Assembly: GCA_016938275.1 (NCBI GenBank)
Contig: JAFGUZ010000204.1
Location: forward strand, 9,820-73,819
Reading direction: 5' to 3'
DNA: 64,000 nucleotides
Source of the DNA: Candidatus Delongbacteria bacterium
Lineage (GTDB): Bacteria > UBA4055
The position numbers and the translations under genes are program-made. The notes beneath the pieces were generated by a model. It was given only the letters and a program-made list of their open reading frames with translations. It searched no databases and was not told where the DNA came from. Below are positions 1-19,807 of the stretch, piece by piece (positions within the stretch are counted from its first letter, which is position 1; every line of letters begins with the position of its first letter).

Positions 1-308
1 TTCACATCTATGATAAATATTTGATTCTTACTATCTTTACCATCTGCCTTACGAATAATAGCTAAAGTTCTACCATCTGAAGACCATTTTGGTGATTGAC
101 AATTACCATCTATCTTACTTGACAACTGGGTGTGCTTTTTCTTCTTTACTTCATATAACCAAAGTTCGCTGATATATTTGTTGTCATTCCAATCGGTAGC
201 AAGTTTCTTGTATACTACCATTGTTCCATCATTATTAACAACTACTGATCCAATTTTCTCAAGTGAAATTATCTCCTCAATTGAAAAATGTTTTCTTTTT
301 ATTGTCAT
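1..308 (-). CDS. S9-family serine peptidase, N-terminal beta-propeller part (5' end only; the gene runs off the left edge)
   Basis: Not in the ORF track because there is no stop in the window. Reverse translation from ATG (rc of 306-308) gives MTIKRKHFSIEEIISLEKIG...CQSPKWSSDGRTLAIIRKADGKDSKNQIFIIDV. SPxWSxDGxxLA is the typical propeller-blade motif of acylaminoacyl/prolyl-oligopeptidase-type enzymes. AGGAG (rc of 315-319) lies 6 nt upstream of the ATG. Confidence 0.55.
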   Translation of the reverse strand, partial: MTIKRKHFSIEEIISLEKIGSVVVNNDGTMVVYKKLATDWNDNKYISELWLYEVKKKKHTQLSSKIDGNCQSPKWSSDGRTLAIIRKADGKDSKNQIFIIDV

Positions 309-364
309 ATATTTCTCCTAATATAACTGTTTGAATAATTTATAAAAGCAATGAGCGTTATTAC

Positions 365-496
365 TTGTAACGTTGAGTGTATGCGTAGTGGCGGATTTCG
401 GAACTTTTCGCTATCAAACCGAGATGGTGTTGGTGCGAGTCACAAACCTTGATATTTACTACTTACTCCGCCATTACGTATGACACATTGTTGGTG
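365..496 (-). other. attC-like imperfect palindromic recombination site (R''-L''...L'-R' layout), 3' of the DUF262 gene
   Basis: Minus-strand reading: CACCAAC-AAT-GTGT[C]ATACGTAATGGCGGA-(71 nt)-TCCGCCACTACGCATACAC-TCAAC-GTTACAA. The stem is 19 bp (plus-strand 377-395 with 467-486). It has two G-T wobbles that exist only on the plus (bottom) strand and one bulged base (G482). It starts 8 nt after the stop codon at 504-506. Confidence 0.45.
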
Positions 497-503
497 GTAG
501 TAA

Positions 504-2138
504 TTACTCAAACGAGTCATCACTTTCATTGTCTGTACTATATGGGTCATAATCAATTTCGCCTCTTATCTTAGTTGTTCCAGTCAAGTCAATAATTTCT
601 TCAGCAATTAATTGTTTTCTTTGATTAAAGAACGAATCATAATCAGAATTTTCTAAATGCTCAATACATTTTTCATCTATAAAGTGTGATTTCAATATCG
701 AGAGAAAATTGTTACTATGTGCTTTTTTGATATCGCTAACGATTTGAAGGAAATTTAATTCTTTAGTCTCTGTTCTACTACTAAATAGAATATTTACACA
801 TGATCTAGAATTCTTACTGTTAGACTCCTTATCTATAATATAGTGAAATTGATTTTTGTCAACACTTGATAATAGAGTATTGCTTTCATAAATAATGCCT
901 TCTATTAAATCAATTGGTTTTCTGTTTGCTAATAAAAGAGCAAAAGTCTTGCTATTTGCAAGATTTAATCTAAAATCATCATTAACAAAACGATCAATTG
1001 AAATCTCCTTTTCAATAGGTATTTCATCTATTTTTAATAATGCAAAATTCCGTATTAGTTCTAGATCCCTTGCATTTTGCCCTGTATTTGATGTGCCAAA
1101 ATGCCTTGAAATAGATGTTTTCCAAAACCACTGTTTTAGCTTTAGAATCTGACCCTCACTTGGTCGAGGCTGAAGATTAAAGAATTCCACCAAAAATGTC
1201 AATTGTAGACTGTATGGCAAGTATGCCGCTGTGGGTAGAAATATTTCATTGTGCAAGAACTCTATAGCGTTAATATACCCACTTGTACATTTTTCTGAAG
1301 CTAACTTTAAGTTTTCTGATGTCTCTGATCTTAAACGATCAATATTTTCTCTATTTATTCCTAACCCAGCACAGGCAGAAATATTCCTTAATATATGATT
1401 ATCCGAAATTTCAAAATAATTACGTTTCTGACATTCTCGCTTAATTTGTTCCAAAGCATCATTCAGGTCAAAATCACCTTTCCAAGTTGCAGCACGCATT
1501 AAATCAACAATTGTCAACTTTCGTCCAGTACTATTTATCCTTTCAAAAATTGGTGCTACCTCATTAATTGTCATTTCACCAATTTTAACAACGGCTATTT
1601 TATAATCTTTAATTGATCGTAATAATTTTTCTGCGTTTTTGTAGAATTTCTCTTTTTTAGGATGTGCTTCAAAGGCACTGCATTGTGAAATAAAATCACT
1701 AGTATTTAATAATTTATTCAAAGGAAAGTATTCAATCTTAAACTCATCTTTTGGATAAATAAATCGCTCCTTTTCCAAGTCAAAAGCAACATTCCAAAGA
1801 CTACGTGAATTTTTCCCATCCCAAAATAAGGTACCACATAGGCTAGAGACTCTTTGTTGTCCATCAAGCAAATAGTTAGTTGGATAAAAATCCGTCTCTA
1901 CATTTATTATTAGTTCTGCAATATTCCTTTCACTTACTAATTGTTCAGATGATTGCCATAATAGAATACTCCCTATAGGATATCCATTATAAATACTATC
2001 TAAGAGCTTAATCACTTCTTTTCTCTTCCAAACAAAAGGTCTTTGAAATTTCGGTAATCTGATGTCTCCAACTATAACACCTGTAACAATTTCTTCAATT
2101 CTTTGTATATCTGGTTTTGGGTCTTTATATTTCATCAT
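504..2138 (-). CDS. DUF262 (ParB/Srx-like, GmrSD/SspE N-terminal type) domain protein with no clear DUF1524/HNH module
   Basis: N-terminal motifs are LPKFQRPFVW, GYPIGSILLW and YLLDGQQRVSSL (the DGQQR signature of DUF262). The C-terminal half has only a weak FHYIID...VNILFSS relic where relatives carry the His-Me finger. The tail is acidic. The start overlaps the upstream gene by 14 nt. Confidence 0.75.
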   Translation of the reverse strand: MMKYKDPKPDIQRIEEIVTGVIVGDIRLPKFQRPFVWKRKEVIKLLDSIYNGYPIGSILLWQSSEQLVSERNIAELIINVETDFYPTNYLLDGQQRVSSLCGTLFWDGKNSRSLWNVAFDLEKERFIYPKDEFKIEYFPLNKLLNTSDFISQCSAFEAHPKKEKFYKNAEKLLRSIKDYKIAVVKIGEMTINEVAPIFERINSTGRKLTIVDLMRAATWKGDFDLNDALEQIKRECQKRNYFEISDNHILRNISACAGLGINRENIDRLRSETSENLKLASEKCTSGYINAIEFLHNEIFLPTAAYLPYSLQLTFLVEFFNLQPRPSEGQILKLKQWFWKTSISRHFGTSNTGQNARDLELIRNFALLKIDEIPIEKEISIDRFVNDDFRLNLANSKTFALLLANRKPIDLIEGIIYESNTLLSSVDKNQFHYIIDKESNSKNSRSCVNILFSSRTETKELNFLQIVSDIKKAHSNNFLSILKSHFIDEKCIEHLENSDYDSFFNQRKQLIAEEIIDLTGTTKIRGEIDYDPYSTDNESDDSFE

Positions 2139-3168
2139 TATCCTTTTTAAAAGTTAGAGGTTCAGTTACAACGACATTTTTATCAAAGATATCTTTGTGT
2201 CTTTTATCGAGTAAAAGCCTAGAGTTCATATTTTGAAGAATGTCATAATTGTCAATTAAATATTTGAAGTTTGGATAACCCAAATTTGGCTTATCTGAAT
2301 AGTAGTTGATAGGTGTTAAAGAGTTATAAAAAATTAGAACCAATTCATCTGTTGATAATTGAGCTCTAACAATATTGCAATAAAACTGTTTTTCTTTATC
2401 AGTTATAAGACTAGTTTTATGCACATATTTAAAAATATGGTACAAATTCCTAAAATAGTGCCCTAAATTATATTGATATAAATGAAAAAATCTTTCATAT
2501 TCGGACTTAACTATTTTCTCTTTGTCATCAATTGGTTCACTTATGAAATTTTCAATATCTTGATCTGATAAAGTCTGCAGATTCTTAATTTCTTCCTTTT
2601 CCAATTTTTCAAAGAATGAATGTTGGATGTCTCTTTTTGCTTTAAAATCAGAAACTTCGTTTGCGTCCAATTTAGTTAATGCGGAATATTTGAAGTATTT
2701 ACAATGACTTCTATATTTGAGATCTTTAATCGCACCTATAAAAAACTCTCTCTTTTCGTATGTTTCACCATCTATAGGTTTGATTTTTAGCTTATCAACA
2801 ATTTCGTTATGCAAAGAAAGTAATTGGAAAAAAGTATTCTCAAATCTTTGTTTTTTAAGAGTGTCATTTTGTTTAATAAACTCTCCTCTAGTTTCTTCTA
2901 ACTCTTCTCGTTGTAATTTTAGTTCTCTTTTTTGTAACAAAATTGTAAAAATGATACCTGCAAAAGCTAATGCAGAGAATAATGCATTGATTACACCAAA
3001 TTTGTCACCAAATAAACCTCTAGTTTCAACATCAGAGAGTTTAGAAAGATCTGTTGATACAATTTTATAGTCAATATATTGCCATGAAAAATACCAAAAT
3101 ATGACAACTAAAATAAATAAAATTAAACCAATAATTATATCTTTTGTATTTGAACTATCTGTTTTCAT
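2125..3168 (-). CDS. AbiC-like putative abortive-infection membrane protein (putAbiC family)
   Basis: Two N-terminal TM helices (IIIGLILFILVVIFWYFSW and INALFSALAFAGIIFTILLQ). The family-typical segment is GLFGDKFGVINALFSALAFAGIIFTILLQKRELKLQREELE. Later motifs are FFQLLSLHNEIV, YFRNLYHIFKYV and IVRAQLSTDELVLIFYN. The 347-aa size matches the AbiC family. Recognised from memory of the family, not by search. Confidence 0.65.
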   Translation of the reverse strand: MKTDSSNTKDIIIGLILFILVVIFWYFSWQYIDYKIVSTDLSKLSDVETRGLFGDKFGVINALFSALAFAGIIFTILLQKRELKLQREELEETRGEFIKQNDTLKKQRFENTFFQLLSLHNEIVDKLKIKPIDGETYEKREFFIGAIKDLKYRSHCKYFKYSALTKLDANEVSDFKAKRDIQHSFFEKLEKEEIKNLQTLSDQDIENFISEPIDDKEKIVKSEYERFFHLYQYNLGHYFRNLYHIFKYVHKTSLITDKEKQFYCNIVRAQLSTDELVLIFYNSLTPINYYSDKPNLGYPNFKYLIDNYDILQNMNSRLLLDKRHKDIFDKNVVVTEPLTFKKDNDEI

Positions 3169-3225
3169 TTTTATCTTCCTTTGCCATATTTAATTTATAT
3201 TTTATGTTCATTAGAATACTCTTAT

Positions 3226-3236
3226 TACCACCAACA
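3226..3236. repeat. Right arm of the 11-bp inverted repeat (partner 489-499); contains the core-site-like GTTGGTG on the minus strand
   Basis: Plus 3226-3236 taccaccaaca is the reverse complement of plus 489-499 tgttggtggta. The right arm lies 58 nt (repeat end 3226 to start codon 3168) upstream of the AbiC-like start. The left arm lies 5-15 nt downstream of the DUF262 stop. Confidence 0.6.
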
Positions 3237-3244
3237 TCTGTATT

Positions 3245-3268
3245 CCCTCCCAAATGGGAGGTATTTTT
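3245..3268 (+). terminator. GC-rich hairpin plus T-run on the plus strand (intrinsic-terminator-like, antisense to the cassette)
   Basis: Stem cctccc (3246-3251) pairs with gggagg (3256-3261) across a 4-nt loop aaat, followed by tattttt. There is no U-run on the minus strand. No plus-strand gene is annotated upstream, so the function is unclear. Confidence 0.3.
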
Positions 3269-3327
3269 CCATTAAATATTGCTGCTTATGGCGGGTAGCC
3301 GCCCAATATCGGCTTAAAAGTATCATT

Positions 3328-3612
3328 TTACTCTTCTCCTTCAATAATTAACCGATCCAAAGGATTCTTGAGCTTACCAAAAGCACTTTTAGTTACATGA
3401 TTGCAAATTTCTGTTGTTTTAGAACTTTGATCTCCTAACAATTCTTGAAAATATCTTAGATCAGTACCTTTTTCAAGTAAGTGCATATCAAATAAATGTC
3501 TAAGTGTGTGAATAGAAGCCCATCTATTTATACCAGATTCTACATACTCTGACTTCAAAGCTATTCTCTTTTCATCACTAAAAAGAATTTCACCAAACAA
3601 AATCTCTCTCAA
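3328..3612 (-). pseudogene. Tyrosine recombinase relic, IntI-like C-terminal fragment (about the last 90 aa), catalytically dead
   Basis: The sequence IHTLRHLFDMHLLEKGTDLRYFQELLGDQSSKTTEICNHVTKSAFGKLKNPLDRL matches box II of tyrosine recombinases (HxLRH...LLGH...TxIYTHV). His is replaced by Asp (LGDQ) and the nucleophile Tyr by Cys (EICNHV). The ORF opens at a TTG right after a stop, so the N-terminal two thirds are missing. The tail G..L.NPLDRL resembles integron-integrase C-termini. Confidence 0.75.
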
Positions 3613-4087
3613 AACTATATCCTATTATTCCAAATGAACAATATTATTTTAACAACTAAATCTAACTTTGTCAACGATAATTAACTTACAATTTACAACT
3701 CCAAATTGTAGCTAAATAATATTCCTTTTTTGCATACTCTTCATCATATTAGTTTTTCAAAAATAGTTTTCTTTAAAGTTTTATCAAATTTACCTCTATT
3801 TTTAAAATTTTGTATTCTGATTCTAAACCCCTTCAATAATTTGAAATTTTGATAGTAAATCAGTTCAATTACTATTTTTTTTAACAGCTTCTTTAGTTCA
3901 ATACCTACCTGATAGAGCATTCCTTAGTCGTAGTCTGCCAGCTAAAGTTTTAGCATAATCTCCAAGTTAATTTACACAATGAACTACACGGAGTTTAAAT
4001 TAAGCACCTCTACGTCGAAGCAAAGCGAAATGATTGGCGACAATTCAAACCCTAATAATTTCGTAATAATATTCACCAAAATAAAGG

Positions 4088-6295
4088 CTAAATCGGATAC
4101 TCTTTTGGTGGTATTTCGCCTAATAGATGAGTTACAAAATAATCCCACTTTTTTCTATGAACATAAGATATCCACAAACAATTATGATCAGCATTTGGTA
4201 CAATCAAGATATCAAAGTCTTTATTATACTCTATCAATTTGGCAGCCAAACGAGTTGCTTGAGTGGGCAGAACAATAGGATCAAGTTCTCCATGAATTAT
4301 ATAAAGTTTCCCTTCTAGTTTATGGCAATGTGAAATAGGAGATTGTTCTTTATAAAGCTTTTCATCATACTCTCCTAAATATATTTGTGAATACCAGTAG
4401 CAATGATTACTCCAATCATAAACACCGGAAACAGCAACTCCTACTTTATAGAAATCACCGTAATTAAACAGAGCATTTGCTGTATCAAAACCACCATGAG
4501 AAGCTCCAGTTATTCCAACTCTATCAAGATCCAGATAAGAATACTTTCGTGCAAGCTGTTTTATTGCATAGACATGATCAGGCAATCCACTATCTTTGAA
4601 GTTTTTATATGAGTGCAGGCTAAATTTCCTATTTCTCTTATTTCTTCCTCTACCATCAACCTGTATAACAATAAAACCAAGTTCTGCTAAAGCCTGAGAA
4701 TCATCTCTCCACAAACAGTCTAAAGAGGTGTGGATATATCCATGACCTCCGGTGTAACAATTATCTATTACTGGATATTTTTTATTAGGATCAAAATTTG
4801 ATGGTCTATGAATTAAACCATAAATTTTAGTTTGTTCATCACAGGCAGTTGCTTCAAATACTTCGGGCATAACAAATCCGGTTTTTTCAAGATCTTTTAG
4901 ATCAGATTCTTCTAAAAGCATCAGTTCTCTTCCATCTTTATCTCTAAGTTTGGTTATCCAGCCAAAATCCGGCAAATTATAATTGTCAATTATGTAATCA
5001 AAATTGGGAGAAAATTTAATATTGTGATCTCCTTTATCCGGTGTTAAAAGTTGTAAATTATTCCCATCAAGATCAACTTTATATAAATAGTGCAGATAAG
5101 GATTATGATCATCTTCTCGACCTCCGCAAGCTATAAAATACAATTTCCTTTTTTCTTCATCGCAATGAACAATCTCTGTTACAAAAAATTCTTTATCAGT
5201 GATTTTGTTTTTCAATTCGGCTTTTTGCGTATCATAGAGGTATAAATTACAATATCCGTCTCTTAAACTGCCCCAGATTATTTCATTACTGTTTTCTAAA
5301 ATTTTAACTATCATATTTTCAGGATCAATATACTCCTTGGAAGATTCATCAATAATATCCTTTGTAGTTTTTTCTGCATAATTGTATTCTTTCAAGATAT
5401 ATCGTTTAAAACCTTGTTTCACATCAAGATAGTATAGATAATTATTTTTTTCTAACCACAAATTCATTCCACATATATCTAGGAGCTGTTCTTTATTTAC
5501 TTTCGTTATCTTCATACTGTTAACATCCAGTAAGAAAATCTCAATAAGCGATCTATTATTGATAGCTAAAGATCTCTGCCAGCTTTTTGCTTTAGGCAAC
5601 AAACTGTCAGAAGGCATCGCCTGTACAAAAGTTATTTTTGAAGCCATTCTCATATCAATTCGTGAAAAACATAAAGTATTAGAATCACTAGACCAAGGAT
5701 GATCATAGTATTTAACTATTTCAAACACACCTTTCTTCGTAATTTCAGGCGAAGATAAATCATAACAATACTCAAAATCTTCTACACCATCATAAGTGAT
5801 TTGCCTTTCTTCTTTGGTTCTCAAGTTTCTTAAGTATAAATTATATTCTTTGGCAAAAATTTGAAATTTACCATCAGGACTGACATTTTCAAGTTGCTCT
5901 TTACTTTCATTTTTCTGTAAAGTTATAGCTAAATCAGTTAAGTTTAATTTATATTCTTTATCTTTGTAAGCGAATATAACTTCACTTCCGCAAAATGAAA
6001 TTAGAGTTAAATCCAGACTATCTGCCTCTAATGGCTTTTCTAAAAATTTGTTTAAATTTTCAGCGACTTTCTCAACATTAAAGGCTACTTGTTTAGTATT
6101 GGCTTCAACATCAATTAGCCAAAATTCTTTCTTCCCATCACGAAGATTATTTCTGTATATAAATTGATTGTTTTCTGAATTGAAGATTGGATCTACAGAG
6201 GTTTTGTAAATTCTTTTCTTCATATTTCGCCAAACAGCTTGTTCTGCTCTTTGGTAATTGGCGTATATAGGTGAAGTCTCTACCTTATTTGTCAT
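4088..6295 (-). CDS. Dipeptidyl-peptidase IV-like S9B serine peptidase
   Basis: 735 aa with a long N-terminal propeller region. The C-terminal alpha/beta hydrolase carries the nucleophile motif GITGASHGGF, Asp in IIHGELDPIV and His in NADHNC. Confidence 0.85.
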   Translation of the reverse strand: MTNKVETSPIYANYQRAEQAVWRNMKKRIYKTSVDPIFNSENNQFIYRNNLRDGKKEFWLIDVEANTKQVAFNVEKVAENLNKFLEKPLEADSLDLTLISFCGSEVIFAYKDKEYKLNLTDLAITLQKNESKEQLENVSPDGKFQIFAKEYNLYLRNLRTKEERQITYDGVEDFEYCYDLSSPEITKKGVFEIVKYYDHPWSSDSNTLCFSRIDMRMASKITFVQAMPSDSLLPKAKSWQRSLAINNRSLIEIFLLDVNSMKITKVNKEQLLDICGMNLWLEKNNYLYYLDVKQGFKRYILKEYNYAEKTTKDIIDESSKEYIDPENMIVKILENSNEIIWGSLRDGYCNLYLYDTQKAELKNKITDKEFFVTEIVHCDEEKRKLYFIACGGREDDHNPYLHYLYKVDLDGNNLQLLTPDKGDHNIKFSPNFDYIIDNYNLPDFGWITKLRDKDGRELMLLEESDLKDLEKTGFVMPEVFEATACDEQTKIYGLIHRPSNFDPNKKYPVIDNCYTGGHGYIHTSLDCLWRDDSQALAELGFIVIQVDGRGRNKRNRKFSLHSYKNFKDSGLPDHVYAIKQLARKYSYLDLDRVGITGASHGGFDTANALFNYGDFYKVGVAVSGVYDWSNHCYWYSQIYLGEYDEKLYKEQSPISHCHKLEGKLYIIHGELDPIVLPTQATRLAAKLIEYNKDFDILIVPNADHNCLWISYVHRKKWDYFVTHLLGEIPPKEYPI

Positions 6296-8732: not shown

Positions 8733-9325
8733 AATTTCTTCATCAATAATTCTATTACTAAATTAGCTTGCATATTGGCAACAATATGGATTCTAGGACA
8801 ACATAGTCCTTCACTCATATCGGTAGTCTGATCACCACAAACATATAAATTAGCAATTTTTTTTATCTTCAATTCTTCAAATTGACCGTAGCCAGAAATA
8901 CCACTACCTGAAATAACTGGAGTATCACTAAAATTCATGAAATATTCAATAATCGTTTTTTTTGTTTCAGCTAAATCTACAGCTTCAACTATAATATCAC
9001 AATTGTCAAATAAACCAGTAATGTTATCAGAATCTATTTTTAAAAGAATTTTATTAAGTGAAATATTTAGATTAATTCCCTTAAGATACTTCTCGATTGC
9101 ATTTACTTTATATAATCCAATATCATCTAAAAAAAAATGTTGTCTATTTAAGTTTGTAGCTTCAACCTTATCGAAATCACAAATAGTAAAATTTTCAACA
9201 CCTGATCTCGCTAGAGATATAGCAACGTTTGATCCTAGTCCTCCACATCCTATAATTCCTACTCTAATCTTGCATAACTTTTCGTATAATCCATTTACAT
9301 TTCTATTAAATTGAACAGGTATCAT
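8729..9325 (-). CDS. ThiF/MoeB/HesA-family E1-like adenylyltransferase (short ThiF type)
   Basis: Nucleotide-binding fold IGCGGLGSNVAISLARSGV..FTICDFDKVEATNLNRQ. Its start overlaps the xseB stop. Confidence 0.7.
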   Translation of the reverse strand: MIPVQFNRNVNGLYEKLCKIRVGIIGCGGLGSNVAISLARSGVENFTICDFDKVEATNLNRQHFFLDDIGLYKVNAIEKYLKGINLNISLNKILLKIDSDNITGLFDNCDIIVEAVDLAETKKTIIEYFMNFSDTPVISGSGISGYGQFEELKIKKIANLYVCGDQTTDMSEGLCCPRIHIVANMQANLVIELLMKKF

Positions 9326-9516
9326 AAATTCGTAATTTCTCCATTTTCTTTAATTTTCATTAGTTTTCCTTCTGCATTACTGATCTTCTCTTTACAAAGT
9401 TTAAGTAACATTTGTCCCTCTTCATACATTTTCAATGTATCATCTAAATCTATATCCCCTTTTTCCATTTTCTCAATAATTTCGGTCAATCTCTTTACAG
9501 CTTCTTCATATTTCAT
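9322..9516 (-). CDS. xseB: Exodeoxyribonuclease VII small subunit
   Basis: 64 aa. YEEAVKRLTEIIEKMEKGDIDLDDTLKMYEEGQMLLKLCKEKI is the typical XseB helical hairpin. Confidence 0.8.
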   Translation of the reverse strand: MKYEEAVKRLTEIIEKMEKGDIDLDDTLKMYEEGQMLLKLCKEKISNAEGKLMKIKENGEITNL

Positions 9517-9528
9517 ATTTCACTCCAT

Positions 9529-9558
9529 AAAAAAAAGAGCGGTAAACCGCTCTTTTTA
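9529..9558 (-). terminator. Rho-independent terminator after rplQ (A-run/T-run on both sides, potentially bidirectional)
   Basis: Stem agagcgg (9536-9542) pairs with ccgctct (9547-9553) across loop taaa. It is flanked by A7 upstream and T-runs on both strands. Confidence 0.75.
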
Positions 9559-9574
9559 TCTATTTTTAAACAGA

Positions 9575-9961
9575 TTAAGCTTCAGTACTTTCAGCTTTTT
9601 TATTTTCAAAACCTACTAATTGGATAACCGCAGTCTCTGCAGCATCACCTTTTCTGAAACCAGTTCTCACAACTCTTGTATATCCACCATTTCTATCAGC
9701 ATAAACAGGTGCAATTTCTTTGAAAAGAATTCTTGCAATATCTTTATCCTTTAGAAACTTTAAAGATTGTCTTAATGAATTCAAATCACCTTTTTTACCA
9801 AGAGTAATTAACTTCTCTGCAAATCTTCTAGTCTCTTTAGCTTTTACAACAGTTGTAGTAATGCTTTTATGTTCGAATAATGATGCGCATAGATTGCCGA
9901 ACATAGATTTTCTGTGGCTTGCAGTTCTGCTTAATTTTTTTCCTTTAACTCCGTGGCGCAT
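9575..9961 (-). CDS. rplQ: 50S ribosomal protein L17
   Basis: MRHGVKGKKLSRTASHRKSM...GGYTRV; last gene of the alpha operon. Confidence 0.95.
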   Translation of the reverse strand: MRHGVKGKKLSRTASHRKSMFGNLCASLFEHKSITTTVVKAKETRRFAEKLITLGKKGDLNSLRQSLKFLKDKDIARILFKEIAPVYADRNGGYTRVVRTGFRKGDAAETAVIQLVGFENKKAESTEA

Positions 9962-9976
9962 ACTTAATCCTTAAAC

Positions 9977-10981
9977 TTACTTTTTCTTATTATTACCATT
10001 TGTATCATTAAGGAATTTTTCGATATCCATTCCGAAATCAAGACCTCTTTCTCTGAGAACTTTGGTCAACTCAGCCAATGACTTCTTACCAAAGTTTCTG
10101 AACCTTAACATTTCACTTTCTTTTTTCTTAACAAGATCGCCAATTGTTTTAACTTTAGCATCGTTAAGACAGTTGTATGACCTTACAGACAACTCAAGAT
10201 CCTCAATAGGCATCTTAAGAAGATTTTTCTTGTACTGTAGTTCAGGATCTTCTTCTTCGGAATGCTCTTTATCCTCAACAACTTCAAATTTGATAAATAA
10301 ACCGATATGATCTGTCAATATTTGACCTGCAAAAGTAACAGCTTCTTCTGGAGTAACAGATGAGTCTGTTGTTATTTCCATTACCAATTTCTCATAGTCA
10401 GTTCTATCACCAACCCTAGTATTTTCGATAATATAATTTACTTTTGTTACAGGAGAGAAAATACAATCAATAGGTATTGTACCAATTGGATCTTCGTCAC
10501 TTCTGTTCTCTTCAGCACTTACGTAGCCACGACCCAATTTAATATTCAATTCCATACTGAATTCAGCATCTTCATTCAAATTAGCTATTACAGCTTCAGG
10601 ATTATATACTACAACTTCACCATTAGAAGCATCTTCTATATCTTTAGCTGTAAATTGACCTTTACCCTTAAAGTTAAGGGTTACTTTAGCTGATTTACCT
10701 TCAGTTAGCTTCAATTTAACTTGCTTAAGATTTAGAATTATCAAGGCCACATCTTCTACGACACCTTCGATTGTCATAAATTCGTGTTGAACACCTTCGA
10801 TCTTAACACTGTAGATTGCTGCTCCCTGAATGGATGATAAAAGAACCCTTTTCATAGCATGACCAATGGTAACACCAAATCCTCTTCTTAAAGGAGAAAG
10901 CTCAAATTTACCAAAGCTTCTACTATAACTACTTTTATCCAATTTTAGTTCTTCAGGCACTTTGAAGGGTAAAACTATCAT
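9977..10981 (-). CDS. rpoA: DNA-directed RNA polymerase alpha subunit
   Basis: 334 aa. The N-terminal assembly domain has GHAMKRVLLSS and the C-terminal domain has ELSVRSYNCLNDAKVKTIGDL. Confidence 0.95.
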   Translation of the reverse strand: MIVLPFKVPEELKLDKSSYSRSFGKFELSPLRRGFGVTIGHAMKRVLLSSIQGAAIYSVKIEGVQHEFMTIEGVVEDVALIILNLKQVKLKLTEGKSAKVTLNFKGKGQFTAKDIEDASNGEVVVYNPEAVIANLNEDAEFSMELNIKLGRGYVSAEENRSDEDPIGTIPIDCIFSPVTKVNYIIENTRVGDRTDYEKLVMEITTDSSVTPEEAVTFAGQILTDHIGLFIKFEVVEDKEHSEEEDPELQYKKNLLKMPIEDLELSVRSYNCLNDAKVKTIGDLVKKKESEMLRFRNFGKKSLAELTKVLRERGLDFGMDIEKFLNDTNGNNKKK

Positions 10982-11001
10982 AATTTAACACCTTTATTTC
11001 A

Positions 11002-11619
11002 TTACTTAGAGTAAAGCTCGATAATTAACTGCTCATTAATTTTCACTGGAATTTCTTCTCTTCTAGGCTTTTCAGTAAGTTCTCCAACCATATTAGCTTT
11101 GTCAAGTCTTAAGTATGGTAGTGGAGCTTCGCTGATATTTTTCATGCTTTCGTGAATGAATTCCAATTTTTTTGATCTCTCTCTTAGAGCTATTTTATCC
11201 CCAGGTTTTACTGTAAACGAAGGAATATTTACATTAGTTCCATTAACCATAACATGCTTATGTGAAACCATCTGTCTAGCAGCTCTTTGACTTGGTGCAA
11301 AACCAAGTCTGTGTACAAGAGTATCTAATCTACATTCAAGTCTTATGATAAGGTTTTCACCAGTAATACCAGTGTCTTTTTTAGCTTTATCATAAACTGA
11401 TCTAAATTGTTTCTCTAAAAGACCGTAAACATATTTCGCTTTTTGCTTTTCTCTTAGTTGGATAGCATACTCACTCAATTTACCTCTTTTACTCATAGGT
11501 CCATGCTGACCTGGCTTGTATGGTTTTCTCTGCAGAATTCTATCGAATTTCGGCAACCCGAATAAGTTCTCTCCGTATTTTCTACAAATTTTACCTCTTG
11601 GAGTAAAATCTCTTGCCAT
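11002..11619 (-). CDS. rpsD: 30S ribosomal protein S4
   Basis: 205 aa with an S4 RNA-binding domain (LDTLVHRLGFAPSQRAARQMVSHKHVMVNG). Confidence 0.95.
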   Translation of the reverse strand: MARDFTPRGKICRKYGENLFGLPKFDRILQRKPYKPGQHGPMSKRGKLSEYAIQLREKQKAKYVYGLLEKQFRSVYDKAKKDTGITGENLIIRLECRLDTLVHRLGFAPSQRAARQMVSHKHVMVNGTNVNIPSFTVKPGDKIALRERSKKLEFIHESMKNISEAPLPYLRLDKANMVGELTEKPRREEIPVKINEQLIIELYSK

Positions 11620-11636
11620 TCATAAACTCCGTAATG

Positions 11637-12026
11637 TTATATTCTTCTTGCTTTTTTAGGTCTGCATCCATTGTGAGGAACCGGCGTAATATCTTTAATC
11701 GACATAATTTCGATACCGGCAGCATTAAGTGCTCTGATAGCTGATTCTCTACCAGCTCCAGGTCCTTTAACAATGACATGAACTTTTTTCAGACCAAGAC
11801 CCATAGCTTCTTTTGCTATTGAATCCATTGCAGTTGAAGATGCAAAGGCAGTATTTTTCTTAGAACCTTTGTTACCAACCTTTCCACCACTTGACCAGTT
11901 GATTACATTACCATAATTGTCAGTAAGGCAAACAATAGTATTATTAAAAGTAGCTTTAATGTGTGCAACACCTACTGATTCTACTTTTTCCTTTTTCTTC
12001 AGCTTTTTCTTTCTTGTTACAGCCAA
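11637..12026 (-). CDS. rpsK: 30S ribosomal protein S11
   Basis: [14 protein letters not shown]...GSKKNTAFA...RPKKARRI; TTG start. Confidence 0.95.
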
Positions 12027-12053
12027 AGGAATCCTCCTTAAATTAAAAAAATT

Positions 12054-12422
12054 CTACTTTTTATTTTTAATAGCAGCTTTTTTCTTTCCTTTACGTGTAC
12101 GGGCATTAGTTTTAGTTCTCTGTCCATTAACAGGTAAACTTTTTCTGTGTCTAATACCTCTGTAGCATCCTAAGTCCATCAATCTCTTGATAGCAAGCTT
12201 AATTTCAGTTCTAAGATCACCCTCGATCACATATTCATTAACGACTACTTTTCTGATGTCGTCTAATTCTTGTTCTGTAAGATCCTTAATCTTTTTATCA
12301 AGGTCAACCTTAACTTTTCCAAGAATCTCTTTTGATCTTGAACGTCCTACTCCATAGATATAGGTCAATCCAATTTCAACTCTTTTATTTCTTGGTAAGT
12401 CAACACCTGCAATACGTGCCAA
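12054..12422 (-). CDS. rpsM: 30S ribosomal protein S13
   Basis: (M)[23 protein letters not shown]; TTG start preceded by GGGGG. Confidence 0.95.
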
Positions 12423-12432
12423 ATTTGCCCCC

Positions 12433-12546
12433 TTAGCCTTGTCTTTGCTTATGCTTTTTAATTGTACAAATAACTCTTACCACACCGTTTCTCTTGATAA
12501 TTTTGCAATTTTCACAGATCTTTTTTACCGAAGCTCTAACTTTCAT
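12433..12546 (-). CDS. rpmJ: 50S ribosomal protein L36 (zinc-ribbon form)
   Basis: Below the ORF-track size cutoff. Reverse translation gives [37 protein letters not shown], at the canonical position between infA and rpsM. Confidence 0.9.
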
Positions 12547-12560
12547 CTAAAAACTCCTGG

Positions 12561-12779
12561 TTATCTATTCCTGTAAATGATTCTGCCTTTAGTCAAATCA
12601 TAAGGCGAAAGTTCAACTTTAACCCTGTCGCCAGGAACCATTTTTATATAGTGCATTCTCATTTTACCGGAGACATGGGCATTAATAACATGGCCATTTT
12701 CCAGTTCTACTTTGAAGGTAGCGTTTGGAAATATCTCTTTAATTACGCCTTCAGCTTCAATAGTATTACTTTTTGCCAT
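12561..12779 (-). CDS. infA: Translation initiation factor IF-1
   Basis: 72 aa; [44 protein letters not shown]. Confidence 0.95.
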
Positions 12780-12787
12780 AATTTTCC

Positions 12788-13423
12788 CTACTTAATAATT
12801 TCACAGATTTCTTCGTAAATTACGGAGATCTCTCTGTCACCGTCAACATTTTTCAAATTACCTACTTTTTCATAGTACGTAATAAGAGGCTCAGTTGATT
12901 TTTTATAGACTTCTAACCTATTGGATATAGTCTCTTCATTATCATCTGGTCTCTGAATAATCTTTCCACCACATTTTTCACAGTCATCAGACTTTGGAGG
13001 ATTAGTTATCATATTGTAGTCTTGACCACAATTCTGACATAATCTTCTAGCTGTTAATCTGGAAGTTATCTTTTCGAAAGGTACGACTATGTTCAAAACA
13101 TAATCTAACTTAGTACCTAGATTCTTTAACAATTTATCTAAAGACTCAGCTTGAGCGATATTTCTTGGAAAACCATCAAATATAACTCCATTTTTACAAT
13201 CATCAGAAGATAATCTGTCATTTATAATTGCCATTATAATCTCATCAGGTACTAACTCACCACGTTTCATGAATTCAGATGCTTTTTTACCTGATTCAGT
13301 TCCAGCTTTGATTGCATTTCTTAAAAGATCTCCAGTAGATACTTGGATCAATCCTTTTGATTCAAGCAATTTTGCTTGGCTACCTTTCCCAGCACCTGGT
13401 GCACCTAAAAGAAGCAGATTCAT
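12788..13423 (-). CDS. adk: Adenylate kinase (zinc-lid type)
   Basis: P-loop [11 protein letters not shown]. The lid has CQNCG...CEKCGG. Confidence 0.95.
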
Positions 13424-14748
13424 TAAGATCTCCTTCCTTGAAGTTTTCCAGTAGATAAAAATCCGTCATAATGATGCATAAGAAGATACGACTCTATCTT
13501 AGCTAATGTATCTAAAGCAACACCAACGATAATGATTAGACCAGTACCGCCAAAGAATGAAGCTAAATTATAAGATACACCTGGAAAGAAATTAACCACA
13601 AGATTTGGCATAATTGCTATCACTGCTAAAAATAGAGAACCTGGTAATGTTATTCTGCTTACAACAAAATCTAAATAATCAGATGTTTCTTTTCCGGGTT
13701 TTAAACCTGGTATAAAACCATTACCTTGTTTTAGATTATTACTAATATCCTCTGTATTGAAAGCAATAGCTGTATAAAAGTAAGTAAAGAATACAATTAC
13801 AAGAACGTATATTGCCATATAAGAATAGCTGTGATATGCGAAAATATTTAAAATAAATTCACGTACAGGACTTTCTTCTGGCATTAACTGAGCCATTGTA
13901 CTTGGTACAAACATTATTGATTGAGCAAAAATAATAGGCATTACACCTGCGATATTCAATTTAATTGGTAGAAAAGATGCCTGACCACCTTGTACTCTAC
14001 CAGCAATTTGTCTTTTTGCATAGTGAACACTAATTTTTCTCAATGCTTGAGTTAAAGCTACTACAGCAGCAATCGCACCAAGCATACCTACCCAAAGTAG
14101 GATCTCAATAATTATCTCTCTATTATTATTCTGTAATTGAACAACTTCCTCTAGTACAGCTTGTGGAAATCTTGCCACAATACCAAGAGTAATGATCAGG
14201 GATATTCCCTGACCAATACCCTTCAAAGTGATCTGTTCACCAAGCCACATCATAATTACAGTACCTGTAGACAAGATTAACATTGTCATAATCTGAAAGA
14301 AGAGACCAGGATTAGGTACTACCATAACTCCTGAAGAATTCATACTCACCAACAATACAGAAACTCCATAAGCTTGAGCTGCAGATAAAAGTACTGTTCC
14401 ATATCTGGTGTATTGAGTAATCTTTTTTCTTCCCTCTTCATCTTTTTGCATTTTTGCAATAGTTGGAAACACCGTTCCTAATAATTGTATTATAATGGAA
14501 GCAGAGATGTAGGGCATAATCCCCAATGCAAAAATTGCTGCATTTGAGAAAGCTCCTCCAGTAAACATATCAAACATACCAAACAACGAATTTTGAGCTT
14601 GGCTGAAATGATAACTTAAAGCTGTTACATCTATCCCCGGCAACGGGATATGTACACCAACCCTACAGATGAAAAGGATTAAAAGAGTAAATATAATCTT
14701 TTTTCTTAGTTCAGGTATCTTGAATACGGTCTGTAATTTTTCGATCAT
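13423..14748 (-). CDS. secY: Preprotein translocase subunit SecY
   Basis: 441-aa polytopic membrane protein at the canonical position between rplO and adk. Confidence 0.95.
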   Translation of the reverse strand: MIEKLQTVFKIPELRKKIIFTLLILFICRVGVHIPLPGIDVTALSYHFSQAQNSLFGMFDMFTGGAFSNAAIFALGIMPYISASIIIQLLGTVFPTIAKMQKDEEGRKKITQYTRYGTVLLSAAQAYGVSVLLVSMNSSGVMVVPNPGLFFQIMTMLILSTGTVIMMWLGEQITLKGIGQGISLIITLGIVARFPQAVLEEVVQLQNNNREIIIEILLWVGMLGAIAAVVALTQALRKISVHYAKRQIAGRVQGGQASFLPIKLNIAGVMPIIFAQSIMFVPSTMAQLMPEESPVREFILNIFAYHSYSYMAIYVLVIVFFTYFYTAIAFNTEDISNNLKQGNGFIPGLKPGKETSDYLDFVVSRITLPGSLFLAVIAIMPNLVVNFFPGVSYNLASFFGGTGLIIIVGVALDTLAKIESYLLMHHYDGFLSTGKLQGRRS

Positions 14749-15179
14749 AATTCTACAACTTTTCCGTTAGCTTGACTGATTTTATCCACTGCACTTTTTG
14801 TGAAAGCGTGTGCGTGAACTTCTTTGGCCTTATTAATCTCTCCATTACCAAGAATTTTTACTTTTCTGTTAATGTTGATCAGACCTTTACTTTTTAAAAC
14901 TTCTGGAGTTATAACATCTTCTTCAAGTCTATTCAACACTTCAATGTTAATTTCATTGTATTGAATCTTAAAGATATTGTTAAATCCAACTTTTGGAAGC
15001 CTTCTTGTCATAGGTGTTTGACCACCCTCATGATACATCTTCCTGCTGTAACCAGATCTTGATTTTTGACCTTTCTCACCACGACCACTAGTTTTACCCT
15101 TTGATCCTGGTCCACGTCCAACTCTGGTTTTAGCCTTATGTTGCCCCTCATTCGGAGCTAGCTCATTGATTTTAATCAT
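14745..15179 (-). CDS. rplO: 50S ribosomal protein L15
   Basis: GRGPGSKGKTSGRGEKGQKSRSG. Confidence 0.95.
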   Translation of the reverse strand: MIKINELAPNEGQHKAKTRVGRGPGSKGKTSGRGEKGQKSRSGYSRKMYHEGGQTPMTRRLPKVGFNNIFKIQYNEINIEVLNRLEEDVITPEVLKSKGLININRKVKILGNGEINKAKEVHAHAFTKSAVDKISQANGKVVEL

Positions 15180-15192
15180 CGATGTAAATCCC

Positions 15193-15378
15193 TTAAACTT
15201 CTTCTACACAGACAAGGTGTTTTACTTTGAAAATCATACCTCTAATCTGAGGGCAATCTTTGTGTTCTTTAACTTGTTGCATTTTTCTAAGACCTAGAGC
15301 AAAAAGATTACTTTTAATTTTTGCTTTTGATCCTATCATACTTTTAACAAGCTTTACTTTTAACATCTTTTCAGACAT
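15193..15378 (-). CDS. rpmD: 50S ribosomal protein L30
   Basis: 61 aa; LKVKLVKSMIGSKAKIKSNLFALGLRK. Confidence 0.9.
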   Translation of the reverse strand: MSEKMLKVKLVKSMIGSKAKIKSNLFALGLRKMQQVKEHKDCPQIRGMIFKVKHLVCVEEV

Positions 15379-15400
15379 TTGATCCTCATTTCAACTTTTA

Positions 15401-15907
15401 TTAGTTGTAAAGTTTTTCTCTTGAGATTCCTCTTGATTTTAGGAATTCATTTTCACTTTTGATGCTCTTTAAACCTTCAATAGTCGCCTTAACAATATTG
15501 TGGGCGTTGGAACTTCCTTTAGATTTTGAAAGGATATTGTGATATCCCGCACATTCTAAAACCGCTCTTACAACCCCACCGGCAATAATACCAGTACCAG
15601 CTGCAGCAGGTTTAAGAAGAACTTTTGCTGCTCCAAATTTAGCTTCAATTTCATGAGGTACAGTTTGAGCGGAAGTAAAATTTACACTTATTAAATTTTT
15701 CTTAGCTTCTTCAATACCTTTTGCAATTGCATCAGTTACTTCAAGTGCTTTCCCTAGTCCATGACCAACACGTCCGTTTCCATCACCAACAACTACAATC
15801 GCATTAAAACTGAAGTTTTTACCACCTTTTACAACTTTTGTAACACGGTTCAGTTTAACAACTTTTTCTATGAACTGAGGAGCATCATCTTTTACAATTT
15901 TTGCCAA
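15401..15907 (-). CDS. rpsE: 30S ribosomal protein S5
   Basis: [36 protein letters not shown]; TTG start. Confidence 0.95.
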
Positions 15908-15931
15908 AATAGTCCTCTACCAATAATTTTT

Positions 15932-16318
15932 TTAGAATTTAAGTCCACCTTTTCTTGCACCTTCTGCAAGAGCTTTTACTCTACCATGGTATAGGTAACC
16001 ATTACGATCAAATACAATGGCACTAATATTTGCTGCAAGTGCCTTCTTAGCAAGTTCTTCACCTATCAAAGTAGCAATATCAGTTTTAGTCTTAATATTT
16101 TCGTTAGAATCTATCATTGACTTAATTTCTTTCATATTGCTATTGCAACTTACGATAGTGTTACCATCATTGTCATTTATGATCTGAGCATAGATGTGAC
16201 AATTTGATCTAAAAACACTTAGTCTTGGCATCTCTGCCACACCAAATAAGTTTCTACGAACGTGCTTTTTTCTTCTTATTCTTGCAGCTACTTTTTTAAG
16301 TTTAGGTTTTTTGTTCAT
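15932..16318 (-). CDS. rplR: 50S ribosomal protein L18
   Basis: RLSVFRSNCHIYAQIINDNDGNTIV...FDRNGYLYHGRVKALAEGARKGGLKF. Confidence 0.95.
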   Translation of the reverse strand: MNKKPKLKKVAARIRRKKHVRRNLFGVAEMPRLSVFRSNCHIYAQIINDNDGNTIVSCNSNMKEIKSMIDSNENIKTKTDIATLIGEELAKKALAANISAIVFDRNGYLYHGRVKALAEGARKGGLKF

Positions 16319-16361
16319 TTAATAACCTCAAATCCTCATCGAACTTTTTATTGACGCTGCA

Positions 16362-16916
16362 TTACTTCTTCTTAGCAGCTTTACCAGCTTTTCTTATAAT
16401 TCTTTCATCTTTATATCTTAGACCTTTACCTTTGTAAGGTTCTGGTTTTCTAAGACTTCTGATTTTAGAAGCAAACATACCAAGCAATTCTTTATTGATA
16501 CCGCTTAACTTCAAAGATGAAGTATTACTTACCGGTTGAGTTGCTTCAGCTGTGATTCCTTGTGGAATCATAACATAAATAGGGTGTGAATAGCCAAGAG
16601 AAAGTATCAAATAATTACCGGATACTTCCATTTTGTAACCAACTCCATGAAGAATAAGTTCTTTTACAAAACCTTCAGAAACCCCTGTTACTATATTGCT
16701 AATTAAAGCTCTTGTAGTACCATGTATGGCTTTGGAAAATTTTTCTTCATTTTTTCTGGCAACAATTATTTCTTCATTTTCTACGTTTATAGTAACGTAG
16801 TCGGTAAATGCCATACCTAAAGTTCCTTTTGGTCCTTTTGCAGAGATATGATTTCCCGTAATTTCAACTGTAACTCCTTTAGGGATGCTTACAGGTTTTT
16901 TTCCTATTCTTGACAC
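16362..16916 (-). CDS. rplF: 50S ribosomal protein L6
   Basis: (M)SRIGKKPVSIPKGVTV...PEPYKGKGLRYKDE; GTG start. Confidence 0.95.
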   Translation of the reverse strand: MSRIGKKPVSIPKGVTVEITGNHISAKGPKGTLGMAFTDYVTINVENEEIIVARKNEEKFSKAIHGTTRALISNIVTGVSEGFVKELILHGVGYKMEVSGNYLILSLGYSHPIYVMIPQGITAEATQPVSNTSSLKLSGINKELLGMFASKIRSLRKPEPYKGKGLRYKDERIIRKAGKAAKKK

Positions 16917-16932
16917 GTGAAACTCCTAATTA

Positions 16933-17331
16933 TTACCAAACACTACAAAGTACTTCACCACCAACATTCATCTTTTTCGCAGTTTTGTTACTGATAACAC
17001 CTTTTGATGTTGTCATAATAGCGATACCGAAGTTGTTTTTCACTCTTGGCAGCTTGTCAACACTTGCGTAAACTCTCAAACCTGGCTTACTAACACGTTT
17101 AATCTCGTTAATAACGCTGTTTCCATACACATCATATTTTAGATAAACCCTTAAGATACCTTGTTTTGTGTCTCTAATGTTGTAGTATTTTTCAACATAA
17201 GCTTCGTCAAGTAATATCTTAACAATTTTTCTTTTTAAATTTGATGCCGGAATATCAACATATTTATGTTTTGCTTTTGCAGCGTTTCTGATTCTGGTTA
17301 ACAAGTCGGCAACTGGATCAGTCATCGTCAT
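16933..17331 (-). CDS. rpsH: 30S ribosomal protein S8
   Basis: DPVADLLTRIRNA...GGEVLCSVW. Confidence 0.95.
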   Translation of the reverse strand: MTMTDPVADLLTRIRNAAKAKHKYVDIPASNLKRKIVKILLDEAYVEKYYNIRDTKQGILRVYLKYDVYGNSVINEIKRVSKPGLRVYASVDKLPRVKNNFGIAIMTTSKGVISNKTAKKMNVGGEVLCSVW

Positions 17332-17365
17332 ACTTGTAATTCTCCTTAAGTGAATAAAATAAATA

Positions 17366-17551
17366 CTACCAACTAGCTTTTCTTACACCAGTTAATTCTC
17401 CAGCAGCAGCCAATTGTCTGAAACAAATTCTGCAGATACCAAACTCATTCATGTAACCTCTAGGTCTTCCGCATCTGTTACATCTGTTATACTGACGTAC
17501 CTGGAACTTGTTAATTTTTTTAGCTTTGGCTACCATAGACTTTTTTGCCAT
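17366..17551 (-). CDS. rpsN: 30S ribosomal protein S14, type Z (zinc form)
   Basis: 61 aa with CNRCGRP...CRICFR. Confidence 0.95.
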
Positions 17552-17569
17552 GTGCTATTTCCTCTTACC

Positions 17570-18109
17570 TTATTTTTTAAACGGGAAGTCCAATTCTTTT
17601 AAAAGTGCGATTCCCTCTTCATCTGTGTTAGCAGATGTCACAATAGTGATATTGAGTCCATTAGCCTTAATTACACTGTCGAATTTGATTTCAGGGAAAA
17701 CAGTCTGTTCTTTGATACCAAAATTAAAATTTCCTCTTCCATCAAATGATTTTGTAGACATACCGCTAAAGTCTCTGATACGAGGCATAACTATCGTTAC
17801 AAGTCTTTCGTAAAACTCGTACATTTTTTCATCACGAAGAGTTACGTAAGCACCTATTTTCATCCCTTGTCTTAGCTTGAAGTTAGACACAGATCTTTTA
17901 GCTTTAGCTGTTGCAGGCTTCTGACCGCTCATCAAACCCAACTCTTCTACTGCAGCGTCAAGAATTTTTGAGTCTTTGATCGCATCTCCCAACCCCATAT
18001 TGAGAACTATCTTCTCAATTTTTGGTACTTGCATAATAGATGAGTAGTTGAATTTTTCTTTCAGATTGGATCTAACCTCTTCAAGATATTTCTTTTTAAC
18101 TCTTTGCAT
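17570..18109 (-). CDS. rplE: 50S ribosomal protein L5
   Basis: 179 aa; [16 protein letters not shown]...[16 protein letters not shown]. Confidence 0.95.
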
Positions 18110-18133
18110 TTTTTTACCCTTTTTCTACAACAT

Positions 18134-18442
18134 TTACAAAGACTTACTGCAAGCTTTGCAATATCTTGTAACACTGCCGTCTTCATCACGTTTTTTACCG
18201 ATTCTAGCCGCTTTACCGCAACTAGGACAAACAACCATTACATTTGAAACGTGTATAGGCATCTCTTTTTCGACAATCCCACCTGTCTGATTGAACTGAT
18301 TTGGCTTAACATGCTTCTTTGCAATATTAACACCCTCAACAACAACTTTGTTTTTTTCTTTCAGTACAAGTCTTACAACGCCTTCTTTACCCGCATGGTT
18401 GCCCGTAATCACTCTTACTTTGTCGTTTTTAACTACTTTCAT
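18134..18442 (-). CDS. rplX: 50S ribosomal protein L24 (KOW domain; C-terminal CxxC...CxxC)
   Basis: KNDKVRVITGNHAGKEGVV...PIHVSNVMVVCPSCGKAARIGKKRDEDGSVTRYCKACSKSL. Confidence 0.95.
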   Translation of the reverse strand: MKVVKNDKVRVITGNHAGKEGVVRLVLKEKNKVVVEGVNIAKKHVKPNQFNQTGGIVEKEMPIHVSNVMVVCPSCGKAARIGKKRDEDGSVTRYCKACSKSL

Positions 18443-18462
18443 TGCACCAAATCCTGTTTACA

Positions 18463-18831
18463 TTATAATACTTCTGGTGCCAGAGACACAATTTTCATAT
18501 AATTCTTGTCTCTAAGCTCTCTGGCTACAGGACCGAATATCCTAGATCCTTTGACTTCACCTTTAGCATCAAGGATCACGGCAGCGTTTTGATCAAATCT
18601 AATATAAGATCCGTCTGCCCTTCTTAGTTCTTTTGCAGTTCTTACCACTACAGCCTTAACAACTTCGCCCTTTTTAACAGATCCGCCTGTTACAGCGGAT
18701 TTAACTGCACATACAATTACATCTCCAATTCCGGCATATCTTTTTTTAGATCCACCTAGAACTCGGAAACACATCATAGTTTTGGCTCCTGTGTTGTCGG
18801 CTACTGTAAGAATTGTTCCTTCTTGAATCAT
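18463..18831 (-). CDS. rplN: 50S ribosomal protein L14
   Basis: [17 protein letters not shown]...[25 protein letters not shown]. Confidence 0.95.
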
Positions 18832-18846
18832 CGCTCGACCCTAAGT

Positions 18847-19104: not shown

Positions 19105-19168
19105 TAAGTACTCCCTGTATTCAGAATTTCTGAATATAATACAATTATTTTAAAATTGCTAATTTATT

Positions 19169-19363: not shown

Positions 19364-19365
19364 TC

Positions 19366-19785: not shown

Positions 19786-19807
19786 ATCGAATCATCTCCA
19801 AGACAAA

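Follow-up and report, generated by a model that had tools for sequence, protein, structure and literature searches.

A probable attC-type recombination site closing a two-gene anti-phage module beside an integron-like integrase remnant in a Candidatus Delongbacteria contig

We analyzed a 64,000-nucleotide stretch of contig JAFGUZ010000204.1 from a Candidatus Delongbacteria bacterium, hereafter called the window. Read along the minus strand, the locus of interest begins with a DPP-IV peptidase gene (6295 to 4088), which is followed by a non-coding stretch of 470 bp with a promoter-like site at its end, the remnant of an integrase gene, a spacer, two cargo genes annotated as anti-phage functions, and a palindrome; beyond the palindrome lie two S9 peptidase genes, a nucleotidyltransferase gene, and uvrA (table 1). 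The two cargo genes overlap by 14 nt. An exact-protein look-up with the 544-aa GmrSD_N ORF returned no record, and gene callers choose a 543-aa start for this gene. The two small hairpins of the spacer are G+C-rich, and the first resembles a terminator of the plus strand (CCTCCCAAATGGGAGG followed by TATTTTT). The promoter-like site stands directly upstream of the dead integrase ORF and reads toward the defence genes, a position in which this consensus match may act as a cassette promoter. It was also observed that the proposed cassette and the remnant lie inside a run of three S9-family peptidase paralogues (window 1-308 and 4088-6295; L001 15988-20672). No cassette array was found at the locus: the window plus L001 contained one site, with ordinary peptidase genes downstream.

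Table 1. Features of the locus, with their coordinates in the window
Feature	Position	Strand	Basis
Attachment site of attC type (proposed), whole	363..498	-	extent from covariance models R1 and R2
R' box GTTACAA	365..371	-	sequence
Proposed gene cassette as integrated, 2864 bp	371..3234	-	two GTT cores and R''/cassette-start complementarity
L' arm	377..395	-	pair table
Variable central part, 71 nt, with internal TATCAA/TTGATA stem	396..466	-	folds
L'' arm, with an extra unpaired base at 482	467..486	-	pair table, folds
R'' box CACCAAC (496 to 490), extended to TTACTACCACCAAC	490..503	-	sequence; 14/15 complementary to 3222-3236
Cargo gene 2, GmrSD_N (DUF262), PADLOC PDC-M55C	504..2138	-	Pfam 4.4e-30; PADLOC 1.5e-88
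Cargo gene 1, putative AbiC/AbiP-like abortive-infection protein	2125..3168	-	Pfam putAbiC 1.8e-17; PADLOC AbiP/AbiC
First cassette bases GTTGGTGGTAATAA, the cassette's own R' half	3222..3235	-	complementarity; circle-junction fold
Putative attI: 92-bp spacer from integrase stop to cassette, with two small hairpins (3246-3261, 3289-3302)	3236..3327	-	position, inferred
Integrase remnant, last ~75 residues, 94-codon ORF	3328..3612	-	profile match, alignment
Promoter-like TTGACA-17-TAAAAT with extended -10 TG	3646..3674	- (3674 to 3646)	11/12 consensus match only

The sequence-only reading had described 365-496 as an imperfect palindrome with the architecture of an integron attC site, and each base-level detail that it gave was borne out by our pair table. 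The arms (plus strand 377-395 with 486-467) form 19 pairs, 17 of which were again counted as Watson-Crick, with G.T pairs on the plus strand at 383:479 and 388:474, and G482 of the plus strand (C on the gene strand) is left unpaired 4 bp into the L box. The R boxes, GTTGGTG at 490-496 (reverse complement CACCAAC) and TTGTAAC at 365-371 (reverse complement GTTACAA), each agree with the RYYYAAC / GTTRRRY consensus at 5 of 7 positions, and they are separated from the L boxes by spacers of 3 nt (AAT) and 5 nt (TCAAC). The central loop (396-466) is 71 nt long and carries, as had been claimed, a second GTTGGTG (reverse complement CACCAAC) at 429-435, which is conserved only in part among the nearest related sites. 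Pairing reaches beyond the limits originally drawn, as 357-365 pairs with 504-496 and 368-372 with 493-489, and all of the non-Watson-Crick pairs of this extended palindrome (7/7) are G.T on the plus strand.

We searched for palindromes of the form AAC...GTT with an L-box stem using a custom scan, for which 70 windows simulated under a first-order Markov model served as the null. The palindrome was the top of the window (score 15; runner-up 12), and a score of at least 15 was reached in 3 of the 70 simulated windows. Because that many simulated windows score equally, the structure alone is weak evidence; it is marginally beyond chance, and its significance comes from the context and from the homologues described below. 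As single-stranded DNA, the plus strand folded at -17.7 kcal/mol (z -1.9) and the minus strand at -15.6 kcal/mol (z -1.8). The preferential folding of the bottom strand (here the plus strand), which had been put forward as an attC feature, therefore held for the window copy and did not hold across its family, described below, in which the bottom strand was the stabler one in just 37 of 101 members; in the commonest subfamily, one wobble favours each strand. We accordingly dropped the folding advantage as a general argument for attC.

Other roles for the palindrome were weighed against the same folds. As RNA, the plus strand folded at -52.7 kcal/mol (z -3.9), a stability that follows from the fact that the 7/7 non-Watson-Crick pairs become G.U on this strand, and the value could point to a structured plus-strand small RNA, antisense to the operon. 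The strand asymmetry is, however, absent from the family, where pair 20:138 favours the opposite strand, no convincing plus-strand promoter was seen upstream, and there was no Rfam match, with nothing relevant returned for the palindrome by either the gathering or the permissive scan; we consider a small RNA extremely improbable. The gene strand bears on a second possibility, that the palindrome does no more than end transcription of the AbiC-like/GmrSD operon or stabilise its 3' UTR. It begins 7 nt beyond the GmrSD_N (DUF262) stop codon (504-506) in the orientation of the gene, TTGCTTTTAT comes after it, and the gene-strand RNA folds at -35.5 kcal/mol; yet this fold is ordinary (z -1.5), and a terminator scan that looks for a short G+C-rich stem followed by a T run did not call it. 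This explanation also fails to account for the AAC/GTT ends, for a cassette start complementary to the palindrome, for the remnant of an integrase, and for the occurrence of the same site behind unrelated genes in arrays, and it is thus very unlikely to be the whole account, but the palindrome could still terminate transcription as a side effect. A dispersed repeat of the REP/MITE type, the counter-reading that the sequence-only reading had named, would fit an imperfect palindrome whose G+C content (0.44) exceeds that of its surroundings (~0.31); against it, we found a single copy in 86 kb of contig, and members of the family stand at the 3' ends of ORFs that run the same way and in arrays beside integrases, which leaves this explanation with next to no probability.

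The boundaries of the two-gene module were more informative. In an integron cassette, the bases that follow the crossover at the cassette start are the missing half of the cassette's own R box. At this locus, the 14 nt at the cassette start (minus strand, 3235 to 3222, GTTGGTGGTAATAA) form the complement of the palindrome's R'' side (503 to 490, TTACTACCACCAAC), and the slightly longer stretch 3222-3236 (TTATTACCACCAACA, 15 nt) agrees with the inverted complement of 489-503 at all but one position (14/15). Thus, on the gene strand, the module opens with G/TTGGTGGTAATAA and closes with TTACTACCACCAAC before the stem of the palindrome (the slash marks the crossover here and below). This complementarity is what an excised circular integron cassette requires and therefore supports the reading of the module as a cassette. 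When the circle was joined in silico, its junction formed a 15-bp R helix, with folding energies of -27.2 kcal/mol for the bottom strand and -24.3 kcal/mol for the top strand, and the same complementarity rule was true for the first cassettes of two related loci (L006 and L022). Excision would be expected to leave an empty site with the junction GGGAGGGAATACAGATG/TTACAAGTAATAACGCTCATTGC and to yield a circle with the junction CGCATACACTCAACG/TTGGTGGTAATAAGAGTATTC; the exact cassette boundaries are now stated and can be checked in reads. A search for an empty-site relative via the DPP-IV neighbour reached a next relative that was just 39% identical, which made the comparison impossible.

We then considered the integrase remnant. 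Its best NCBIfam match was the integron integrase family TIGR02249, at positions 245-315 of 315, with 62 bits compared with 55 for XerD. Near-invariant sites are substituted, among them the catalytic tyrosine, which is replaced by cysteine (TTEICNHV for TTEIYTHV), and the histidine of LLGH, which is replaced by aspartate. A word-indexed homologue search with the 94-aa remnant returned only the remnant itself, and an exhaustive search of representatives found relatives merely 55-62% identical over ~70 residues, whose cluster names were uninformative. The remnant contains neither of the two peptide patterns used in a scan of the genome collection. Two Logan contigs from run SRR13394436 break exactly at both edges of the remnant (window 3328-3612; L001 12651-12990), which might reflect repetition or variability of this stretch within the sample, perhaps through an intact copy elsewhere.

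The full-length relatives of the remnant comprise 345-480 residues and match TIGR02249 in two pieces, under the cut-off. The IntI-specific insertion of ~50 residues (IntI1 residues ~195-245) is absent from every close relative and every array-bearing relative, and all of them score below the TIGR02249 cut-off. In a tblastn comparison with IntI1 185-245, the 19 canonical IntI loci covered 60-61 of the 61 residues, and the close relatives of the remnant covered 19-45. Each of the nearest full-length relatives, P0020 (L006) and P0006 (L011), stands ahead of a co-oriented row of small, unrelated genes, between which lie GC-rich palindromes with the layout ..AAC-3 nt-L''...L'-5 nt-GTT.., and successive sites in these rows obey the R'/R'' complementarity rule. 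In one of the arrays (L011 13770-13860 and 17330-17410), we also observed very short 'cassettes' that contain no ORF (GTTGGGCAG...CTGCCCAAC and then a 50-nt palindrome) and are repeated within the array.

A genome scan with one genome per species, for which an alignment of the relatives' integrases served as the query, returned 80 loci. The closest was an Ignavibacteriota MAG (L013), in which the integrase is followed by an array of ~141-nt sites with the cassette ORFs on the same strand, and many Bacteroidota came next. In cultured Bacteroidota (L022, L023, L025, L016, L017, and L086; ~9000-20000), arrays of ~135-nt sites lie directly downstream of a co-oriented integrase that is without the IntI-specific insertion and fails the TIGR02249 cut-off. 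The integrases of L022 and L025 (370 and 345 residues) match the profile only from residue ~75-98 onward, which implies an N-terminal extension.

Homologues of the window site were found in such arrays, namely in Flavobacterium aciduliphilum DSM 25663 (L025 17389-17525) and Algoriphagus ornithinivorans DSM 15282 (L022 13001-13137). These two sites and the window site have in common the block CGTAATGGCGG, the block AAATCCGCCACTACGC ~73 nt further on, and the AAC/GTT ends, and their outer L boxes differ from that of the window by compensatory changes. The inner stem GTAATGGCGG...CCGCCACTAC is common to at least 120 metagenome contigs and to the two cultured Bacteroidota. A metagenome scan with the pattern GTAATGGCGGN{60,90}CCGCCACTAC matched at least 120 contigs; among the matches listed, there were 123 instances of the pattern, comprising 1 chance match, 8 cut by a contig end, and 114 complete instances, and AAC and GTT stood at the expected distance in 102 of the complete instances among these matches. 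One metagenomic site (L134) is ~92% identical to the window site over its full length and differs in its R''/R' flanks, as is expected for a different cassette.

An alignment of 101 sequences that includes the window site (A4) was used to examine the stem; because the search pattern fixes them, its 20 inner-stem columns do not vary. Standard pairs filled 86% of the pair cells, and eight outer L-box pairs were altered on both sides. The covariation score was 0.208, compared with 0.084 after shuffling, where 0 of 500 trials reached the observed value, and no more than 0.066 once partners had been slid. In the commonest subfamily, the L box is free of bulged bases and the spacers measure 1 and 5 nt. 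Two covariance models were also applied, both with rough E-values owing to short calibration: R1 was built from A4, window site included, and R2 was built here without the window site, from 13 sites in the arrays of other genomes. R1 recognized a single site in the window plus L001, at 363-498 on the minus strand (72.7 bits, E 2e-15; 25 bits on the plus strand), and R2 recognized the same interval and strand with 60.1 bits (E about 1e-12), the next match having an E of 0.47. A significant match to an attC-type covariance model was thus obtained with R2, a family model of our own in place of the IntegronFinder model named by the sequence-only reading. The classical attC sites in L057 and L071 were not detected by R1.

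R1 also revealed arrays downstream of and co-oriented with an integrase, with 8 sites in Algibacter onchidii, 6 in a Flavobacterium MAG, 5 in Flavobacteriaceae S0862, 4 in F. aciduliphilum, and 3 in Polaribacter, and further co-oriented arrays in Aquiflexum, Gilvibacter, and a Calditrichales MAG; these array sites were chosen without the 20-nt pattern, save for two sites already known. The taxa in which the site family was seen are Bacteroidota, Calditrichales, and the source MAG, which is Delongbacteria/Cloacimonadota-like; a related array in Ignavibacteriota carries ~141-nt sites of its own. The SecY of the source MAG shows 83% identity to that of a Candidatus Cloacimonadota MAG and 70-75% identity to those of Candidatus Delongbacteria.

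The genes next to these sites were consistent with cassettes. In 55 of 95 family loci, R'' coincides with the end of an ORF that lies on the same strand and has at least 100 codons; for a converging ORF, this was so in 8 of 63. In F. aciduliphilum, the sites follow a C5-methylase/HaeII pair and an MmeI-like enzyme (cassettes 10491-17525), and in A. ornithinivorans the site follows a STAND NTPase of 884 residues (10335-13137). Ten large cargo proteins from metagenomes comprised three of the GmrSD type, one ABC ATPase, one protein with a beta-lactamase fold, one DprA-like protein, and four unknowns. The metagenome loci L124, L162, and L202 are among the family-site cassettes with large defence genes. 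In three other loci (L096, L115, and L182), GTCAG..TGTGAAAAAACT stands where the GTT R' box would be expected; the three have this flank in common, which may be an array end or an attachment context. In L183 (794-3073), a family site immediately precedes the gene for a tyrosine recombinase of 302 residues, behind which comes an ORF of 388 residues; such a layout is unlike that of the arrays and may belong to another element.

The site was also compared with known systems. The 60-nt attC of aadA1, the sequence of which was verified in plasmid R100, reads CTAAC-AATTC-GTT[C]AAGCC...GGCTTAAC-TCAAGC-GTTAGAT, and the window site reads CCAAC-AAT-GTGT[C]ATACG...CGCATACAC-TCAAC-GTT. The two are alike in the box order R''-L''-variable-L'-R', in the AAC/GTT ends, in spacers that start with AAT and TCAA, and in an extra C a few base pairs into L''. 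Like integron attC sites in general, the window site directly follows the cassette ORF and has an R'' that can pair with the opening bases of its cassette, and the family sites form direct repeats along arrays. The spacers differ, being 5 and 6 nt in the aadA1 site, 3 and 5 nt in the window, and 1 and 5 nt in the main subfamily. Unlike classical attC, the family has a 10-bp inner stem with a fixed A.C mismatch (part of the search pattern, so that its invariance is by construction) and a central part of ~72 nt that recurs across distant taxa; for comparison, the attC repeats of Vibrio cholerae measure ~125 nt.

The integrases provide the main difference. Classical IntI uses the IntI-specific insertion to hold flipped-out bases, and the integrases that neighbour the family sites are without it, unlike those of classical integrons. 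Treponema-type co-oriented integrases, too, as far as is known, carry the IntI-specific domain that is missing from the clade described here. In other respects the arrangement is like that of Treponema integrons (mentioned in PMC4889954), in which integrase, attI, and cassettes run in one direction. Smyshlyaev et al. (2021) described the insertion as "not fully conserved" in an integron-like subgroup (PMC8138268). The locus is also like degraded integrons and CALIN with intI pseudogenes (PMC4889954, PMC9024848), in which attC stands beside a decayed integrase gene. It is unlike CALIN in having a single attC, and because IntegronFinder 2 reports CALIN from two sites upward (PMC4889954, PMC9024848), the locus would go unreported under its default settings.

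These properties of the integrases raise an alternative mechanism, in which the cassette site is recombined as duplex DNA at its AAC/GTT core by Xer-like integrases, in the style of Xer/dif or pdif. XerA and XerD profiles score the relatives as high as the IntI profile does, IntI1 residues ~195-245 are absent, and the family shows no bottom-strand folding preference. In pdif modules, inverted short repeats surround a gene module, and the module in the window is likewise flanked by a 15-nt inverted repeat. A duplex core site, however, would have no need of ~20 bp of stem that lie far from the crossover and are preserved by compensatory changes. Moreover, the array sites are direct repeats and not alternating inverted ones, and the layout fits classical attC. 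A folded site for a Xer-type recombinase is known from the CTX phage, the attP of which is a folded single strand with a ~150-nt hairpin; the family sites differ from both CTX attP and pdif in forming direct-repeat arrays with an adjacent dedicated integrase, and no dif-like site of the 11-6-11 type was noticed on inspection. We therefore regard duplex recombination as unlikely, albeit considerably less so than the non-recombinational roles considered above.

Taken together, the complementarity at the junction, the integrase remnant, the arrays of its relatives, the homologous sites, the match to R2, and the single copy all supported the attC interpretation with which the sequence-only reading had begun. 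We concluded that the palindrome is very likely an attC-type recombination site, belonging to a captured anti-phage cassette of two genes beside a decayed integron-like integrase. The cassette is single and probably immobile. The locus is not a textbook integron, because its integrase clade is without the IntI-specific insertion; as the remnant is a fragment, the integrase type is not directly readable from it, and recombination through a folded single strand is an extrapolation from integrons.

On this basis, the following course of events may be proposed. The cassette would have been captured at an attachment site just downstream of the co-oriented gene of an integron-like tyrosine recombinase, and this gene would later have acquired mutations and lost all but its last 94 codons. 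On the model of integrons, one strand, here presumably the plus strand, would fold into a hairpin in which R''/R' and L''/L' form two recombinase-binding boxes with an unpaired spacer between them and G482 flipped out. The recombinase would cut AA/C in the R box and exchange the strand with attI or with another attC, so that the predicted crossover lies between G371 and T370 on the gene strand (AA/C on the plus strand). The site would now be inert, provided that no intact integrase gene exists in another part of the genome.

Anti-phage cassettes of sedentary chromosomal integrons (10.1101/2024.07.02.601686) offer a parallel in that the cargo is a defence system, and the sites related to that of the window follow R-M, STAND-NTPase, and GmrSD genes. 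The same preprint stresses small, streamlined systems of Vibrio and lists Bacteroidota among the clades in which earlier work had found no integrons (10.1101/2024.07.02.601686); unlike the streamlined Vibrio cassettes, those described here measure 2.8-4 kb and hold one or two long genes. In the openly accessible literature, we found no description of arrays with such sites in the Bacteroidota group. It is quite conceivable, if still somewhat short of probable, that the window site is a stray member of a widespread and apparently undescribed integron class of the FCB group. The integrase of this class would be without the IntI-specific domain, often extended at the N terminus, and co-oriented with the cassettes; its attC would measure ~135 nt with a recurring inner stem, and its cassettes would often be multi-kilobase defence systems.

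For the source genome, a captured cassette explains the presence of a two-gene anti-phage module between peptidase genes. Beyond it, cassette arrays with sites of this family occur in cultured Flavobacteriia and Cytophagia as well as in at least 120 metagenome contigs, beside recombinases that current integron finders reject because the IntI-specific domain is absent. Elements of the proposed class fail the IntI criterion of IntegronFinder, which, if the class is real, would explain the near-absence of reported integrons in Bacteroidota. If the recombinases are active, integron-style gene capture would be much commoner in the Bacteroidota group than has been reported, the IntI insertion would not be strictly required at attC-like hairpins, and large defence systems, besides streamlined ones, would travel as cassettes.
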